Positions 1 through 5,179 of a DNA stretch of 55,600 nt are shown here, piece by piece. Each line of letters opens with the position of its first letter. Within the stretch, counting starts at the first letter, position 1. The translations under genes were made by a program, and so were the position numbers. The DNA comes from Patescibacteria group bacterium. GTDB lineage: Bacteria; Patescibacteriota; WWE3; UBA101185; UBA10185. A model generated the notes under the pieces. The model did no database searches. It was given only the letters and a program-made list of their open reading frames with translations, and was not told where the DNA came from. The stretch covers positions 1 through 55,600 of the forward strand of contig JAHJEV010000001.1 in NCBI GenBank assembly GCA_018825365.1, read 5' to 3'.

Positions 1-195
1 AAAAGGATTGGCTCGAACCGCGTTTTGCTTTCGCAAAAGGTGGCGATTGAACCTAAAAAATCTTGGCAAATACTATACAATCTGCCTGCCGAGGCGCGAA
101 GCGCCGAGGCAACAAACTCGCAACATACAATTTGGCTCCGAACGCTGAACGAAATCCGAACTTTTTTTAGCGAAAATCCTGACGCTGACTTCTGA
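1..195 (+). CDS. 3' end of a probable large serine recombinase/integrase (partial, runs off window)
   Basis: Open frame 1 reads KRIGSNRVLLSQKVAIEPKKSWQIL...TIWLRTLNEIRTFFSENPDADF*. The IGSN and W-L-x(5)-IRT-F motifs resemble C-termini of CPR recombinase-family proteins; the catalytic domain is not in the window. Confidence 0.5.
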   Translation, partial: KRIGSNRVLLSQKVAIEPKKSWQILYNLPAEARSAEATNSQHTIWLRTLNEIRTFFSENPDADF

Positions 196-263
196 CTGCC
201 AGCCCGCCTCTGGCGGTCTGGCAGAAATCCGCTTCGCGGATTCCCACCCACGGCAAAAAATTT
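133..263. repeat. Left copy of a perfect 131-bp inverted repeat (partner 2858-2988)
   Basis: Base-by-base reverse complement of 2858-2988. It begins at the TGG codon of the recombinase-like ORF and contains hairpins CTGCCAG..CTGGCAG and AATCCGC-TTC-GCGGATT. Confidence 0.97.
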
Positions 264-301: not shown

Positions 302-1624
302 TCAAGGTTTGATGGCTGTAAATTTAATACTTACCACTTTGCCTTGGACAACTTTAAGATCTTTTGGATCAGGAGAAGGAACAAATTCTGTTCCGGGACA
401 AGTGGACATAGCGAATAATTCCCCTGGAGTAAGAAAGTGACGTTTCACCACCTTAATTTGACCAAAACCAGCTTTCTCTACTATCTCAAGATAATCTTTT
501 TCAGCAATCGCTCCTCCTACCACCCCAGCCCAGATTGACTGAAAACGTTCTGTTATTTCAGGGTCTATCTTTTCTGAAAAGACCATATCTGAAATAGCCA
601 ATCTGCCACCAGGTTTTAAAATCCGAAAAGCTTCTCTATAGGCAGCCTCTTTGTTTGGGGTCAGAATAATCACACAGTTAGATATAACCACATCAGCAAA
701 ACTATCAGGAAGCTCTAATTTTTCAATATCACTAACCTGCTCTTCAACCCTTGCCGCTGGGAAACCAGCCTCAGCTTCTGACTGCCTTTCTTTCTCAATC
801 ATCTGAGGGGTTAAATCTACCCCAATTACTCTTCCTTTAGGCCCAACTTTATGAGCGGCTAAAATTAGATCAATACCTGCTCCACAACCAAAATCAATTA
901 CTACTTCCCCGGATTTGAGATTGGCAAAACTAACTGGGTTACCACAACCTAAAGCAAGATTAAGAGCAGTTTTTGGAAGCAAAGAAAGTTCTTTCTCACT
1001 ATAAAGCTCTTTAACTTGCTTCTTTCTGATTGGGCAGGGATTTCCCAAAAGAGCATACTTTTCAGCGAAATTTCCGTAACGACTGGCAACAAGGTTTTTG
1101 ATTTCCTCATTTGTCATCTGTTGCTCTTTTGGTTTTACCTTAAAGATTTGCTCAGCCCACAAGAATTTACCAAAACCTACAAGAATTGCACTCTGGCAAT
1201 AAGCTTCAGCATCCTTAATCGCCATGCCATGGCCAAGCGACCAATCACAACATCTTTGATAAACCTCAGCCGCTTCTTTTTTGACTAAATTCCAGTGCTC
1301 CTCAATTTCTTTTTGGGGTATATTGTATTTCTGGGCTAATTTCTCAAATTCAATCTCGAATTTTTTCATCAGAGCTTGAAGCTCTCCTTCCTCGCCTTCT
1401 TCCTTAACTTTTGCCTTGAAACCTGCCTCTTCAACCACTTTAATTAGCTGCTCATCAGTCACCTCCTCAGCCTCTATCTCAATCTCAGCTATACCCCTCT
1501 TTGGACAGCATATAGGGACCCGCTTTACCCCTTTAACCTTTAACAAAGCCTCTTTTACTTCCTCAGTACAGCAAGGGGTATTCATCCCCTCAATTTTTAA
1601 TGTGAGTTCACGAGATTTTTCCAT
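302..1624 (-). CDS. arsM: Arsenite S-adenosylmethionine methyltransferase with N-terminal HMA-like domain
   Basis: ArsM motifs LGCGNP, DFGCGAGID, IGVD, SNCVI and LKPGGRLAISD. The N-terminal ~75 aa (LKIEGMNTPCC...VEEAGF) is HMA-like. Confidence 0.85.
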   Translation of the reverse strand: MEKSRELTLKIEGMNTPCCTEEVKEALLKVKGVKRVPICCPKRGIAEIEIEAEEVTDEQLIKVVEEAGFKAKVKEEGEEGELQALMKKFEIEFEKLAQKYNIPQKEIEEHWNLVKKEAAEVYQRCCDWSLGHGMAIKDAEAYCQSAILVGFGKFLWAEQIFKVKPKEQQMTNEEIKNLVASRYGNFAEKYALLGNPCPIRKKQVKELYSEKELSLLPKTALNLALGCGNPVSFANLKSGEVVIDFGCGAGIDLILAAHKVGPKGRVIGVDLTPQMIEKERQSEAEAGFPAARVEEQVSDIEKLELPDSFADVVISNCVIILTPNKEAAYREAFRILKPGGRLAISDMVFSEKIDPEITERFQSIWAGVVGGAIAEKDYLEIVEKAGFGQIKVVKRHFLTPGELFAMSTCPGTEFVPSPDPKDLKVVQGKVVSIKFTAIKP

Positions 1625-1633
1625 TTTATTATT

Positions 1634-1720
1634 CTCCTTTTAAATTTAATGTTAAATACTTCGACCTTTTTAACTTAGGTTTACTTAAATCTTGATTTCC
1701 TGGTATCACTAAAAGTCTTT
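1634..1720. repeat. Degenerate intergenic direct repeat, copy 1 (copy 2 at 1886-1962)
   Basis: Both spacers share CTCCTTTTAAAT, TCGACCTTTT..AGTT..CTTAAATC and CTAAAAGTCTTT in the same order. Confidence 0.75.
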
Positions 1721-1874
1721 AATGGCAACAGGGTTTTTTAGATGTTTTCTTTCCTTCCGGCTCCTTATAAGTGCAATATGGGATTTTGCTACTCGTATTT
1801 AAAAATGCACATCCCTGACAATCTTTAGGGAAATTAATTTCTTGATTTCTTCTTTTACAAATTTTTTTGGCCAT
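1719..1874 (-). CDS. 51-aa Cys-rich peptide, putative metal(loid)-binding
   Basis: MAKKICKRRNQEINFPKDCQGCAFLNTSSKIPYCTYKEPEGKKTSKKPCCH*, with a strong SD (AAAAGGAGGTG) upstream; not in the ORF track. Confidence 0.65.
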   Translation of the reverse strand: MAKKICKRRNQEINFPKDCQGCAFLNTSSKIPYCTYKEPEGKKTSKKPCCH

Positions 1875-1885
1875 AAATTTCTCAC

Positions 1886-1962
1886 CTCCTTTTAAATTGA
1901 CGATGTCGACCTTTTAATTTAAGTTGTCTTAAATCCTATTTTTGATATTTCTAAAAGTCTTT
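1886..1962. repeat. Degenerate intergenic direct repeat, copy 2
   Basis: See copy 1 at 1634-1720. Confidence 0.75.
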
Positions 1963-2709
1963 TTGACTAATTATTGATTCCCAGAGAATCTTAGCATCAG
2001 GCTCAAGACTAATTATTTCAACATTCCAGATATCAGCTATTTTTGGTATTTCATCAGCTGGCAATTCTGCGGAGATTTCCTTTTTACTGAAATCAGAACC
2101 TTTAACTTTACCAATTTTAGAAATGCTATCTAATATCTCTGCGAATTCACCTTTTGTGCAGCACTCTAACATTATTACTTTGATGCTCATCATCTCTTTG
2201 CCGGTTATTAAATGCTTCTCCCCCTCTAGTTTGATTTCTTTCCCAATGTTTCCTTTCAAGAAATTAACTATACTCACTAGTTCTGTTCCGGCTTTATTAT
2301 TTCTCCATCCTGATATAGTTGATTCTGGGTTAATTGTGCTAGCAAAATTTCTAGATGAGGAGGGAAAAAAATTAGTTACCCCAAAAATAGCTAAACCAAT
2401 ACAGATGATAATACCTGTTGAGATAATTGTCATTTTTTTATATTTCTTTATCAGATCGAAAACTTTACAAACACAGATTATATCTTTACCCTTCAACATA
2501 AAAAAGATGCTCACCCCAGCTATAGCAACTCCTAAGATTATAAGGGGTATCCTATATTGATGCAAAAACACGGCTGCTCCAATGAGACCGAGTGGTATTA
2601 AAAGACCACAACAAATAAATGTAAAGGCAGCTATACTCACTCCAATGATAGCTGAAATTAAAGAGTGCTTTCGATCCCACCCTTTAACAGAGTTATTTTT
2701 GACTTCCAT
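1951..2709 (-). CDS. Membrane protein with MerT/MerF-like CC transmembrane segment and C-terminal LECC domain
   Basis: Three hydrophobic segments, FICCG in TM1, CVC and LECCT motifs; first gene of the arsM cassette. Confidence 0.55.
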   Translation of the reverse strand: MEVKNNSVKGWDRKHSLISAIIGVSIAAFTFICCGLLIPLGLIGAAVFLHQYRIPLIILGVAIAGVSIFFMLKGKDIICVCKVFDLIKKYKKMTIISTGIIICIGLAIFGVTNFFPSSSRNFASTINPESTISGWRNNKAGTELVSIVNFLKGNIGKEIKLEGEKHLITGKEMMSIKVIMLECCTKGEFAEILDSISKIGKVKGSDFSKKEISAELPADEIPKIADIWNVEIISLEPDAKILWESIISQKDF

Positions 2710-2750
2710 ATAATTTTAATTACTTGTGGTTAAATCTCAAATTTATTGTT

Positions 2751-2779: not shown

Positions 2780-2857
2780 ATGATTTTTAGTGGTGGCCAG
2801 GGACTAGTGGAGGATATAAAAAGGCGGTGGCTTTTTGTTCTTTCGGAGAGACCGGCA

Positions 2858-2988
2858 AAATTTTTTGCCGTGGGTGGGAATCCGCGAAGCGGATTTCTGC
2901 CAGACCGCCAGAGGCGGGCTGGCAGTCAGAAGTCAGCGTCAGGATTTTCGCTAAAAAAAGTTCGGATTTCGTTCAGCGTTCGGAGCCA
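2858..2988. repeat. Right copy of the perfect 131-bp inverted repeat (partner 133-263)
   Basis: Exact reverse complement of 133-263. Confidence 0.97.
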
Positions 2989-3013
2989 GGAAACGGACAA
3001 TCTGTAAATGCAA

Positions 3014-3041
3014 TTGACAAATTGTCCGAATATGCTATATT
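3014..3041 (+). promoter_or_regulatory. Sigma70 promoter (leaderless transcript)
   Basis: TTGACA-16 nt-TATATT with TGn extension, 7 nt upstream of ATG 3049. Confidence 0.65.
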
Positions 3042-3048
3042 TGCTTTA

Positions 3049-4209
3049 ATGATAGCAAGAACAGCCCGCCCAAGGTTATTGGAAATGATATCAAAATATC
3101 CTGTTTTGGGTGTTTTGGGACCAAGACAATCCGGTAAAACCACGCTGGTAAGAAACGCCTTTCCTGATTTCACATATATCTCTTTGGAGACTCCTGACAA
3201 TAAGGAATATGCCACAAAAGATCCACGAGGATTTTTGGATAGATATAAATCCCCAGCTATATTTGACGAGGTTCAAAATGTTCCAGAATTGTTTTCATAC
3301 ATACAAGAAAGGGTTGATGCGGGAGGCGAAAGCGGACAGTACATATTAACGGGATCACAAAACTTTATTTTAAACGAAAAAATATCACAAACGTTAGCGG
3401 GTAGGATTTATCTTATCAACCTGCCAACTTTTACTCAAGAGGAACTAAAAGATGAAACAGTAGATGAAGATTGGAAAAAATACGCTCTTAAGGGAACATA
3501 TCCTAGAATATGGGATAAAAGACTAACACCTGAAGAATGGTATCCAAGCTACATTCAAACATATCTGGAAAGAGACGTTAGAAATATAAAAAACATACCT
3601 GATTTAAGAGATTTTCAAACTTTTCTAAAGCTTTGCGCGGGGAGAATTGGCCAAACTACAATACTAAGCTCTTTAGCAAATGAGATAGGTGTTTCCCACA
3701 ACACTATAAAATCGTGGATATCGGTTTTAGAGGCCAGTTATTTGATTTTTCTTTTAAAGCCTTATTATAAGAATTTCAACAAAAGACTTACGAAATCACC
3801 TAAGCTGTATTTCTTTGATACAGGACTTGCCGTAAACCTTCTCAATATTACAAATCCCAACCAAATAGAAACACATCCACTAAAGGGTAATATATTTGAA
3901 AACCTAGTCATTTCAGAAATCGCGAAATCGACTATTAATAAAGGTAAATCAGACTTGGGATACTTTATTAGAGATAAAACAGGCAATGAGGTTGATTATG
4001 TTTCGGAAAAGGGCGGGTTCCTATCTCTTGTAGAAATAAAAGCGTCCAAAACACTTAATACGGACCATCTTAAAGGTATTGAATACTGGGAAAATGTGAT
4101 TAGGGAAAGTAGAAGAGACAGCTTTCTTGTTTATGCGGGGAATGAAGAAAAAACATTTAAAAGCACCAAGTTTATTAGATGGAATAACATAAGCCAAATT
4201 ATAACTTAA
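3049..4209 (+). CDS. AAA+ ATPase with DUF4143 (PD-(D/E)xK) domain
   Basis: Walker A GPRQSGKTT, FDEVQ, LTGSQ, LAGR, KLYFFDTGL and EVDYV...EIK. Start moved from 2827 to ATG 3049, because the extension is the inverted repeat. Confidence 0.9.
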   Translation: MIARTARPRLLEMISKYPVLGVLGPRQSGKTTLVRNAFPDFTYISLETPDNKEYATKDPRGFLDRYKSPAIFDEVQNVPELFSYIQERVDAGGESGQYILTGSQNFILNEKISQTLAGRIYLINLPTFTQEELKDETVDEDWKKYALKGTYPRIWDKRLTPEEWYPSYIQTYLERDVRNIKNIPDLRDFQTFLKLCAGRIGQTTILSSLANEIGVSHNTIKSWISVLEASYLIFLLKPYYKNFNKRLTKSPKLYFFDTGLAVNLLNITNPNQIETHPLKGNIFENLVISEIAKSTINKGKSDLGYFIRDKTGNEVDYVSEKGGFLSLVEIKASKTLNTDHLKGIEYWENVIRESRRDSFLVYAGNEEKTFKSTKFIRWNNISQIIT

Positions 4210-4286: not shown

Positions 4287-4928
4287 TTAAAGATTTTGAA
4301 GTCTGTTTTCCGATAATTGTGAAATTTCCCGTATAAAAAACTGCTTTATTTCTTCCCACTCTTTTTCTATCTCGACAGATCGTTCGGACAAATTTTCTGC
4401 ATCATCAAAGTACACTAATGACCTCAAGATATGGGGCGTAAAACTCCCCTGTCGAGCATATTTTTTATCGTTTAGATCAATCATATACTCAAGAGGCCAA
4501 CCTCTATCTTTAGCTATTTTGTATACATCAAAAAAATCCCTTTTTAACCCTCTCCCTGCTATCGCTTCTAGTTTCATAGCTGCGATATCTTCAACAGACG
4601 CAATATTAAAGCTTAAAAACTCTGTTGCCTCTTTTAAAAGTTTGTATTGATAGTAAAACAGACTTATCCCAGTATCTTTTGATTTTCCATGCAAAGTTTG
4701 CCACGAAGTAGAAATAAGTTGGAAATCAGGAATCTCACTACCAAATTTTTGCTTCATTTCATCAAGATCAAACTCTACAGGCGAATAAATATCTAAATCA
4801 TAAGAATTTCTATGATTTATCCATAGTGCAAGGGCTGTACCCCCAGCCAAATAACTCTTGGGAGGCGTAACTTTATTTAATATACCCAAGATGTTTTTGG
4901 CGTTTTCTGTAAGTCTTTGTTCAAACAT
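4287..4928 (-). CDS. AbiEii/AbiGii-family nucleotidyltransferase toxin
   Basis: YLAGGTALAL, HRNSYDLDI, IAAMKLEAIAGRGLKRDFFD. Confidence 0.88.
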   Translation of the reverse strand: MFEQRLTENAKNILGILNKVTPPKSYLAGGTALALWINHRNSYDLDIYSPVEFDLDEMKQKFGSEIPDFQLISTSWQTLHGKSKDTGISLFYYQYKLLKEATEFLSFNIASVEDIAAMKLEAIAGRGLKRDFFDVYKIAKDRGWPLEYMIDLNDKKYARQGSFTPHILRSLVYFDDAENLSERSVEIEKEWEEIKQFFIREISQLSENRLQNL

Positions 4929-5179
4929 AATATTTCACTTTGAGGGACATGTAAAAAAAGGCCCCAAAAATATACATCTTTTGGTGTTAGCAATCTAGAA
5001 GTTTTGAGAACTGCAGAAACATCTTCATTTGAATATGTTTCTAGCATCCATTTCCAGCCATCCAATGTTGAGTTTTTCAAGAGAGTTTGAATGATATAGT
5101 TTTTATCCCCTTGGATGTCTAGGTTTTGTATATTTGAGCTTGGAAATAAAGGTTGGAATTTAGAAGGCACTACATTCAT
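4877..5179 (-). CDS. DUF6922-like partner (putative antitoxin) of the AbiEii toxin
   Basis: YIIQTLL...WKWMLETY...SRLL...FW pattern; overlaps the toxin start; TATAAT 6 nt upstream of ATG. Confidence 0.65.
   Translation of the reverse strand: MNVVPSKFQPLFPSSNIQNLDIQGDKNYIIQTLLKNSTLDGWKWMLETYSNEDVSAVLKTSRLLTPKDVYFWGLFLHVPQSEILCLNKDLQKTPKTSWVY

Follow-up and report, generated by a model that had tools for sequence, protein, structure and literature searches.

An ArsM-derived methyltransferase fused to two vicinal-cysteine domains, encoded beside a MerT-like protein on a mobile cassette of groundwater microorganisms

Enzymes of the ArsM/AS3MT family set the extent of arsenic methylation in groundwater and paddy soils, and four cysteines serve as the defining mark of the family in both arsM surveys and annotation pipelines. 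Arsenite methyltransferases conserve these four residues, two of which, Cys174 and Cys224, make up the metalloid site and are needed for both methylation steps (PMC6138428). Other proteins handle soft metals and metalloids through adjacent cysteines: ArsD binds As(III) at Cys12, Cys13 and Cys18, a vicinal pair plus a third cysteine that together form a three-thiolate site, and hands the metalloid to a partner (PMC12415280), and the N-terminal HMA domains of plant HMA2/HMA4 carry the motif GICCTSE (CCxxE), bind Zn and Cd and regulate the P1B-ATPase to which they belong (PMC3411818). The subject of this work is a gene near the start of contig JAHJEV010000001.1 of a Patescibacteria group bacterium, within a stretch of 55,600 nucleotides (positions 1 to 55,600 of the forward strand) that is called the window below. 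The gene (302..1624, minus strand) encodes a 440-residue fusion protein consisting of an HMA domain, a family-specific helical domain and an ArsM-derived methyltransferase, and its position next to a MerT-like protein suggests that a toxic metalloid may be captured and methylated by a route so far undescribed. Our preferred reading of the locus as a whole, a mobile thiol relay by which As(III) or Sb(III) would be captured and methylated, is in our judgement about as likely as not.

The open reading frame begins with an ATG 8 nucleotides downstream of a ribosome-binding site (AAAGGAGAA), and its product carries the motifs GMNTPCC (residues 13-19), PICCP (37-41) and RCC (124-126). The initial annotation, made from the letters without database searches, had picked out this frame and its three vicinal cysteine (CC) motifs, all of which are real; the three CC pairs among 12 cysteines also go beyond chance, having been matched in 59 of 20,000 shuffles. 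The host is, as that annotation had supposed, metabolically minimal (a 732-kb, 95% complete Patescibacteria genome in 4 contigs), and only five of its 725 open reading frames of at least 80 residues hold two or more CC pairs. The fusion gene ranks highest among the five, which also include the neighbouring membrane-protein gene; the others, all on contig C3, are C3:438747-439439 (minus strand, 230 residues, 7 cysteines), C3:381289-382590 (plus strand, 433 residues, 6 cysteines) and C3:27651-29948 (plus strand, 765 residues, 54 cysteines). Selenocysteine recoding of the fusion gene was considered and ruled out: there is no in-frame TGA, and the single TGA that was flagged is the stop codon. An AlphaFold2 model of the protein has a predicted local distance difference test score (pLDDT) of 88.6; confidence is low in two tethers, residues 74-80 and 161-170.

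The C-terminal domain, residues 172-440 (305..1111, minus strand), is a class I S-adenosylmethionine (SAM) methyltransferase derived from an anaerobe-type ArsM (Methyltransf_31, E 4e-30), in which SAM motif I (DFGCGAG) is intact and conserved, as are C197, C227, C317 and C409. Among solved structures it comes closest to CrArsM (Z 25.2) and CmArsM (Z 24.1, root-mean-square deviation 2.2 Å over 216 residues), and by sequence it matches CmArsM at E 1e-24. C197, C227 and C317 align with CmArsM Cys44, Cys72 and Cys174, and the first two are invariant in the fusion family. The NCBIfam model NF008823 covers residues 170-440 end to end (model positions 2-268 of 272), scoring 232.6 bits, or 235.3 bits in the genome search, and its cut-off of 263 is not reached. 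The fourth defining residue, CmArsM Cys224, falls on V368 (codon 521..523, minus strand) in HMMER alignments to 4fr0 and 4kw7. Because this equivalent is lost and the Cys174-Cys224 metalloid pair is thereby incomplete, the protein falls outside the definition of an ArsM. It clearly descends from the ArsM lineage, yet it is not an ArsM as curated; what had been annotated as a full ArsM domain is full in length and lacks one of the four defining cysteines, besides scoring under the ArsM cut-off.

A scan of 185,579 species genomes gave 14 loci with the fusion (referred to by L numbers where they have to be told apart), and about 45 full-length homologues share 51-92% identity with the protein. 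In a cysteine census of 56 aligned proteins, including 30 fusions and 25 stand-alone homologues of about 277 residues, position 368 is V, I, G or P in every fusion and Cys in every stand-alone protein. The fusions have a single Cys at 197 and, with one exception, a single Cys at 409; the stand-alone proteins, which at 52-64% identity are the closest relatives, carry CC or CCC at 196/197 in 25 of 25 cases and mostly CC at 408/409. Compared with these relatives, the catalytic domain of the fusions has therefore lost three cysteines, namely the Cys224 equivalent and one from each of two CC pairs, and in the same proteins C18, C19, C125, C126 and C143 of the N-terminal domains are invariant. On a maximum-likelihood tree the stand-alone proteins lie on one side of a branch, and the fusions enclose one 271-residue protein that shares their cysteine pattern.

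Two explanations take the missing cysteine as their starting point. The methyltransferase might have been repurposed and now act on something other than a metalloid, for example a small thiol, selenide or telluride, or a cysteine in a protein, with the Cys-rich domains binding or regulating. Loss of the Cys224 equivalent and scores under the ArsM cut-offs would fit this, as would the canonical ArsM that shares the cassettes of L003 and L010, and non-ArsM methyltransferases reach Z values of about 22 against 24-25 for ArsMs. We nevertheless find repurposing distinctly unlikely, since three of the four ArsM cysteines and the whole ArsM-specific C-terminal region are retained and invariant, and vicinal thiols are central to every gene of the operon. 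Alternatively, the protein could be a decayed, catalytically dead ArsM kept as a metal sponge or sensor, as the lost residue is one that CmArsM needs for both methylation steps (PMC6138428). This is very unlikely: homologues down to 53% identity conserve the catalytic domain, SAM motif I included, and in a groundwater RNA library contigs about 91% identical extend across the fusion gene. The same library holds one identical 155-nucleotide piece on the membrane-protein gene. DNA carry-over into the library is possible, and the contigs are weak evidence that a relative of the fusion gene is expressed in groundwater.

The HMA domain occupies residues 4-73 (1406..1615, minus strand) and is the only one in the whole genome. 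Pfam HMA (PF00403) scores 27.6 bits on residues 1-78 alone, over the gathering cut-off of 24.8, 26.8 bits in a six-frame genome search and 23.4 bits when the whole protein is scanned; the NCBIfam models NF041115 (UxxU metal-binding protein; 46 bits, cut-off 95), mercuric reductase N-terminus and CopZ also match, with scores under their cut-offs. Among solved structures, phmmer aligns the domain with ATP7B repeats (E 1.9e-17), MerP (6.5e-6), NmerA (7.7e-5) and CopZ, and the AlphaFold2 model places strands at 4-12, 33-35, 45-51 and 70-73 and helices at 17-28 and 57-66, a beta-alpha-beta-beta-alpha-beta order, at pLDDT 70-82. The suggestion of an HMA-like N-terminus with non-canonical vicinal cysteines thus holds on Pfam score, structural alignment and predicted fold. 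In place of GMxCxxC the metal loop reads GMNTPCC. In every PDB alignment the two cysteines of GMTCxxC pair with T16 and C19, respectively, and C18 is the shifted residue immediately ahead of C19; with C19 in register and T16 replacing the first Cys, the site is an xxCC rather than a CxxC. The C18-C19 pair (codons 1568..1573, minus strand) is invariant in both sets of fusion proteins compared (22 of 22 and 30 of 30). The second pair noted earlier, PICCP (1502..1516, minus strand), is indeed present in the loop between the second and third strands and lacks conservation, its C39/C40 position holding a single Cys or no Cys at all in many homologues; pLDDT falls below 50 at residues 39-41, where the model is disordered. 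It is a lineage feature and at most an optional third ligand.

Between the HMA domain and the methyltransferase the initial annotation had placed an acidic, helical linker with RCC. An acidic tether of lower pLDDT does exist at residues 74-80, and RCC is there; the remainder is not a linker but a folded and conserved domain, residues 80-160 (1145..1387, minus strand), which when modelled alone with 31 sequences forms four helices at pLDDT 90.6. Its invariant residues are H110, W111, C125, C126, W128, D138, A139, C143 and S145. The cysteines C125-C126 (codons 1247..1252, minus strand) and C143 (codon 1196-1198, minus strand) lie on adjacent antiparallel helices, bounded at 104-131 and 136-151, at a similar distance from the hairpin, so a three-thiolate site formed by the triad appears geometrically plausible from these predicted helix boundaries. 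The domain has no Pfam family, phmmer against 1.84 billion cluster representatives returned family members only, and in the PDB an exhaustive VIA search reached a best Z of 5.5, far under the noise level for helical proteins, and Foldseek an E of at least 0.88. No known fold can be assigned, and an absent match does not prove a novel one. A relation to AhpD/CMD-like helical domains, with CxxC...H recast as CC...H, was entertained and dropped, as Pfam CMD gave no match at E up to 10 and no fold match was found.

The pattern of gains and losses also bears on a redox explanation, in which the N-terminal CC modules would be a built-in arm that re-reduces the disulfides of the ArsM cycle in place of thioredoxin or glutathione and of the lost CC partners. 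The canonical cycle is a disulfide cascade reduced by thioredoxin (PMC6138428), the losses from the catalytic domain include one Cys of each CC pair, and NCBIfam holds ArsM fusions to redox-type vicinal U/C domains (AhpD, DUF2284). HMA domains, however, bind metal and are not oxidoreductases, the genome encodes a thioredoxin that could serve as reductant, and the association with a Cys-lined membrane protein fits metal handoff better; a redox arm is in our view unlikely.

The HMA-helical-ArsM architecture is rare and unannotated. Family members are labelled only "methyltransferase domain-containing protein", a search with the HMA region for other HMA-methyltransferase architectures returned the fusion family only (within the reach set by its word index), in a sample of 400 further genomes from the phylum (1 of the same genus, 11 of the same family) residues 1-172 found no match beyond the HMA domains of P-type ATPases, and a full-text literature search gave no description of an ArsM with an HMA domain and no mention of DUF5714, so the initial impression of an unusual architecture stands. 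Homologues at 83-92% identity bear the labels Patescibacteria, Nanoarchaeota, Woesearchaeota, Bacteroidetes and Proteobacteria; most of them lie on short contigs, where binning is unreliable. A subset of the family begins with a signal-peptide-like segment (MKR...AYGG), as in L011:4535-5902, L012:772-2139 and L015:5600-7192 and in proteins P0021, P0023, P0025, P0029, P0039 and P0122; some of these duplicate the HMA or the helical domain, the second helical copy being without CC. L011, L012 and L015 have no MerT-like neighbour, and in L012 and L015 a DUF5714 protein with 20 cysteines follows the fusion gene, the L015 copy showing a weak, below-threshold Pfam TusA match at its N-terminus.

Two genes precede the fusion gene on the same strand, with similar spacers of about 80 nucleotides and strong ribosome-binding sites, and a sigma-70-like promoter candidate (2713..2740, minus strand; 10 of 12 consensus positions, by pattern match only) lies upstream of the three. 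The first (1951..2709, minus strand) encodes a membrane protein of 252 residues: FICCG lies in transmembrane helix 1 (TM1), the loop that follows TM2 contains ICVCK, there is a third transmembrane helix, and the soluble C-terminal domain has ECC. It adjoins the fusion in 7 of 15 loci; its identity is 58-76% in L005, L006, L010, L014 and L016, and in L003 it is split into two genes, a membrane half and a secreted half. Its family comprises 48 clusters, every one of them called hypothetical, and shares the taxon labels of the fusion. The middle gene (1719..1874, minus strand), which has its own ribosome-binding site, encodes a 51-residue Cys-rich protein (C6, C19xxC22, C34 and a C-terminal PCCH) that belongs to no Pfam or NCBIfam family and has homologues beside the fusion in L010 (76% identity) and L016 (54%). 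Lys-rich tails ending in vicinal cysteines recur around the family, as KKPCCH in this small protein (window 1719-1874), KKSCCK in L016:5106-5246 and a KKEKPCCR extension on the fusion protein P0034 of L014, and recall the C-terminal vicinal pair of MerA. The L010 cassette (L010:1821-7302, on an 84-kb Patescibacteria contig) contains, in this order, a serine recombinase, a short ArsM with the Cys224 equivalent, a MerT-like protein, a small Cys protein, a corrinoid enzyme and the fusion; the corrinoid enzyme is an ATP:corrinoid adenosyltransferase (CobA/CobO/BtuR, E 3e-55) whose role in a metal-methylation cassette is unexplained.

Membership of the membrane protein in MerT is not established by profile searches: there is no Pfam MerT match at E up to 10, no PDB profile match is significant, and MerF appears in the PDB only at a non-significant E of 1.9. 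Leads remain, however. FICCG in TM1 and ICVCK after TM2, the cysteine pattern of MerT, are kept in 6 of 6 homologues; the L003 membrane half matches Pfam MerT (PF02411) at 18.2 bits (E 0.0026), under the cut-off of 32.9; and in a named ESM Atlas search with residues 1-120, MerT clusters took ranks 1-3 and 5 among the matches listed (score 0.86-0.88, 173-185 shared features). Taken together, these three and the MerF match are suggestive of a MerT-like protein.

Such a neighbour raises the question of whether the locus is a Mer-like system for mercury or another soft metal, in which MerT-like import of Hg(II) would be followed by transfer to an HMA-CC domain acting like NmerA, with the methyltransferase converting or tagging the metal, or by mere sequestration. 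In its favour are the matches of the HMA domain to MerP, to NmerA and to the N-terminus of mercuric reductase, and the MerT leads; MerA ends in vicinal cysteines, and the three transmembrane helices of MerT seem to be paralleled in the neighbour (PMC3466566). Against this, the catalytic domain is closest to ArsMs, MerR, MerA, MerB and MerP are all missing from the cassette, and the evidence for MerT lies under curated thresholds. There is also a chemical objection, in that SAM gives its electrophilic methyl group to a lone pair and Hg(II) has none, the known biological methylation of mercury proceeding via a methyl-corrinoid (HgcA). A mercury or soft-metal function is accordingly rather improbable in our estimate, and with an ArsM-like catalytic core and an ion that offers no lone pair to SAM, As(III) or Sb(III) is favoured over Hg(II).

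If the locus is indeed a metalloid module, its parts could be ordered as a relay. The outer ECC domain, the TM1 CC pair and the CxC loop of the MerT-like protein would form the capture and import leg, and the small Cys-rich protein with its CC tail would possibly come next. The CC pair of the HMA domain, and then the CC...C site of the helical domain, would receive a trivalent thiophilic metalloid, most likely As(III) or Sb(III), which ligand exchange would pass on to the active-site residues C197, C227 and C317; the tethered N-terminal modules may even supply the ligand missing at V368. SAM-dependent methylation of the delivered metalloid would complete a logic like that of MerP-MerT-NmerA-MerA with a methyltransferase replacing the reductase. 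The invariance of C18, C19, C125 and C126 fits a chaperone or relay role, and to that extent supports the built-in chaperone proposed in the initial annotation; its choice of As(III) as the substrate is only an inference, as the Mer-like partner keeps other thiophilic metals in play. The boldest form of the proposal is a Mer-type vicinal-Cys relay feeding a trivalent metalloid to an ArsM-derived core with one ligand outsourced to a tethered domain, that is, a mobile "capture, import, methylate" module comprising what would be the first metalloid methyltransferase with a fused metallochaperone and the first importer of MerT type outside mercury resistance, spread among ultra-small groundwater symbionts unable to make SAM. 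In this complete form it is possible and, to us, doubtful.

Several observations weigh against a metalloid-methylating relay. With the defining cysteine absent and the NCBIfam ArsM cut-off unreached, As(III) methylation cannot be assumed, and HMA and MerT are classic handlers of Hg, Cu, Zn or Cd, not of arsenic. The cassette contains no ArsR, Acr3 or ArsB, and a search of the genome found no Acr3 either. In L003 and L010 a canonical short ArsM stands beside the fusion, an arrangement which suggests that the two are not redundant. The 95% complete genome yielded no SAM synthetase of either the bacterial (TIGR01034) or the archaeal (PF01941) type, although it encodes other SAM-dependent methyltransferases besides this one, so that SAM would have to be imported. 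Finally, the signal-peptide-like segment of some family members is hard to reconcile with a cytoplasmic SAM-dependent enzyme, and an exported version would be odd.

The cassette is mobile in its setting: it travels on a serine-recombinase island among groundwater organisms of the candidate phyla radiation (CPR), DPANN and other groups. The three genes are bracketed by a perfect 131-nucleotide inverted repeat, whose arms (133..263 and 2858..2988) are 100% complementary and whose sequence occurs in the genome in these two copies only. The left arm extends into the 3' end of a gene for a large serine recombinase (1..195, plus strand), the start of which is on contig C3. Contig C1 starts with the window, whose first 112 nucleotides recur at 99% identity at the end of C3 (459841-459952), and so C3 joins C1. 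The joined recombinase frame of at least 482 residues is convergent with the fusion gene and 51% identical to the L010 recombinase, which has Resolvase, Recombinase and Zn_ribbon_recom domains. Window 1-132 recurs inverted at 100% identity just upstream of the recombinase start (C3:458323-458454), so the recombinase is itself bracketed by an inverted repeat nested against that of the cassette. DNA similarity to the other fusion loci ends at the gene bodies, and the 131-nucleotide repeat sequence is absent from those loci. Inversion between the arms was looked for and not found, no strand-changing joint being present in the contigs of four runs, although contigs could miss a rare inverted form.

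Exact cassette DNA was found in a biofilm metagenome and in groundwater metagenomes. In three DNA runs from groundwater and biofilm the summed contig depth over window 1-220 is about 10-50 times the typical cassette depth, and depth over the right repeat arm (2858-2988) is also raised, by less. Contigs leaving the window at 138-140 run into tRNA-like sequence (GGACTCGAACC, GGATTCGAACC), and the recombinase 3' end looks like a widespread community sequence adjoining an att site. Further out, two nucleotidyltransferase toxin pairs of AbiEii type flank the region in inverted orientation (window 4287-5179, minus strand; C3:456605-457464, plus strand), the small partner lying upstream in each, and a tRNA-Asn lies at about C3:455370-455444, some 3 kb upstream of the recombinase; together these may mark a larger island. 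An open reading frame for an AAA_14/DUF4143 ATPase (window 2827-4209, plus strand) is listed from a GTG inside the right repeat arm, and since the conserved domain begins near residue 92 its true start is probably downstream of the repeat. The end of C1 (about 140650-140734) and the start of C2 both break in the same 15-nucleotide tandem repeat (CGGTCGTCAAGCCTC)n.

What the family means depends on whether it is active. Either way it breaks the four-cysteine rule systematically, losing the Cys224 equivalent while gaining tethered CC modules and a Mer-like membrane partner, and its helical domain is a compact new Cys-triad domain and a candidate for metalloid binding. If the enzymes are active, a chaperone domain on the same chain can supply metalloid ligands, Mer-type thiol relays have been reused for metalloids, and episymbiotic CPR and DPANN cells join in metalloid methylation in anoxic groundwater through shared mobile cassettes. 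If they are inactive or repurposed, the family stands as a warning for gene surveys based on arsM.

Set beside described proteins, the fusion shares with ArsM/AS3MT enzymes (CmArsM, 4FR0/4FSD; CrArsM, 5EVJ) the class I SAM fold and the ArsM-specific C-terminal part at 28-32% identity, and differs from them in having V368 for Cys224 and 170 extra N-terminal residues that form two Cys-bearing domains. Nearer to it are the stand-alone ArsM-like proteins of anaerobe type (about 277 residues, NF008823/PRK11873 type, for example P0047, P0056 and P0070), which at 52-64% identity are sister to the fusions on the tree and, unlike them, keep CC(C) at 196/197 and C368 and have neither the HMA nor the helical domain. 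The NCBIfam selenoproteins NF041537 (ArsM/AhpD, UU) and NF041536 (ArsM/DUF2284, UU) likewise join an ArsM-like enzyme to a Cys/Sec module, but the fusion scores far under their cut-offs (179 against 510 and 170 against 575), and their extra domains are C-terminal and of other folds, whereas those of the fusion are N-terminal and its gene has no in-frame TGA.

As for the added modules, plant HMA2/HMA4 also replace CxxC with vicinal cysteines on an HMA fold, although there the CC follows the Gly by 2-3 residues, with Glu for the second Cys, and in the fusion by 5-6. ArsD resembles the helical domain in pairing vicinal cysteines with a third, a resemblance of function only; Pfam, NCBIfam and PDB searches of the fusion protein gave no match to ArsD (thioredoxin-like fold, PF06953), and the module is fused here, and its recipient would be a methyltransferase rather than ArsA. 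The mer relay offers an HMA domain tethered N-terminal to a detoxifying enzyme, a membrane partner whose TM1 has CC and whose loop carries a second Cys pair, and handoff between vicinal cysteines (PMC3466566). It differs in that a SAM methyltransferase stands here in place of the flavin reductase, the HMA site is xxCC and not CxxC, MerR, MerP and MerA have no counterpart, and the domain fused to the transporter is an extracellular binding domain, not HMA, with the MerT assignment itself under thresholds. By analogy with these systems, the function of the fusion would most resemble that of an ArsD-like chaperone and an NmerA-like tethered domain joined to an ArsM core.

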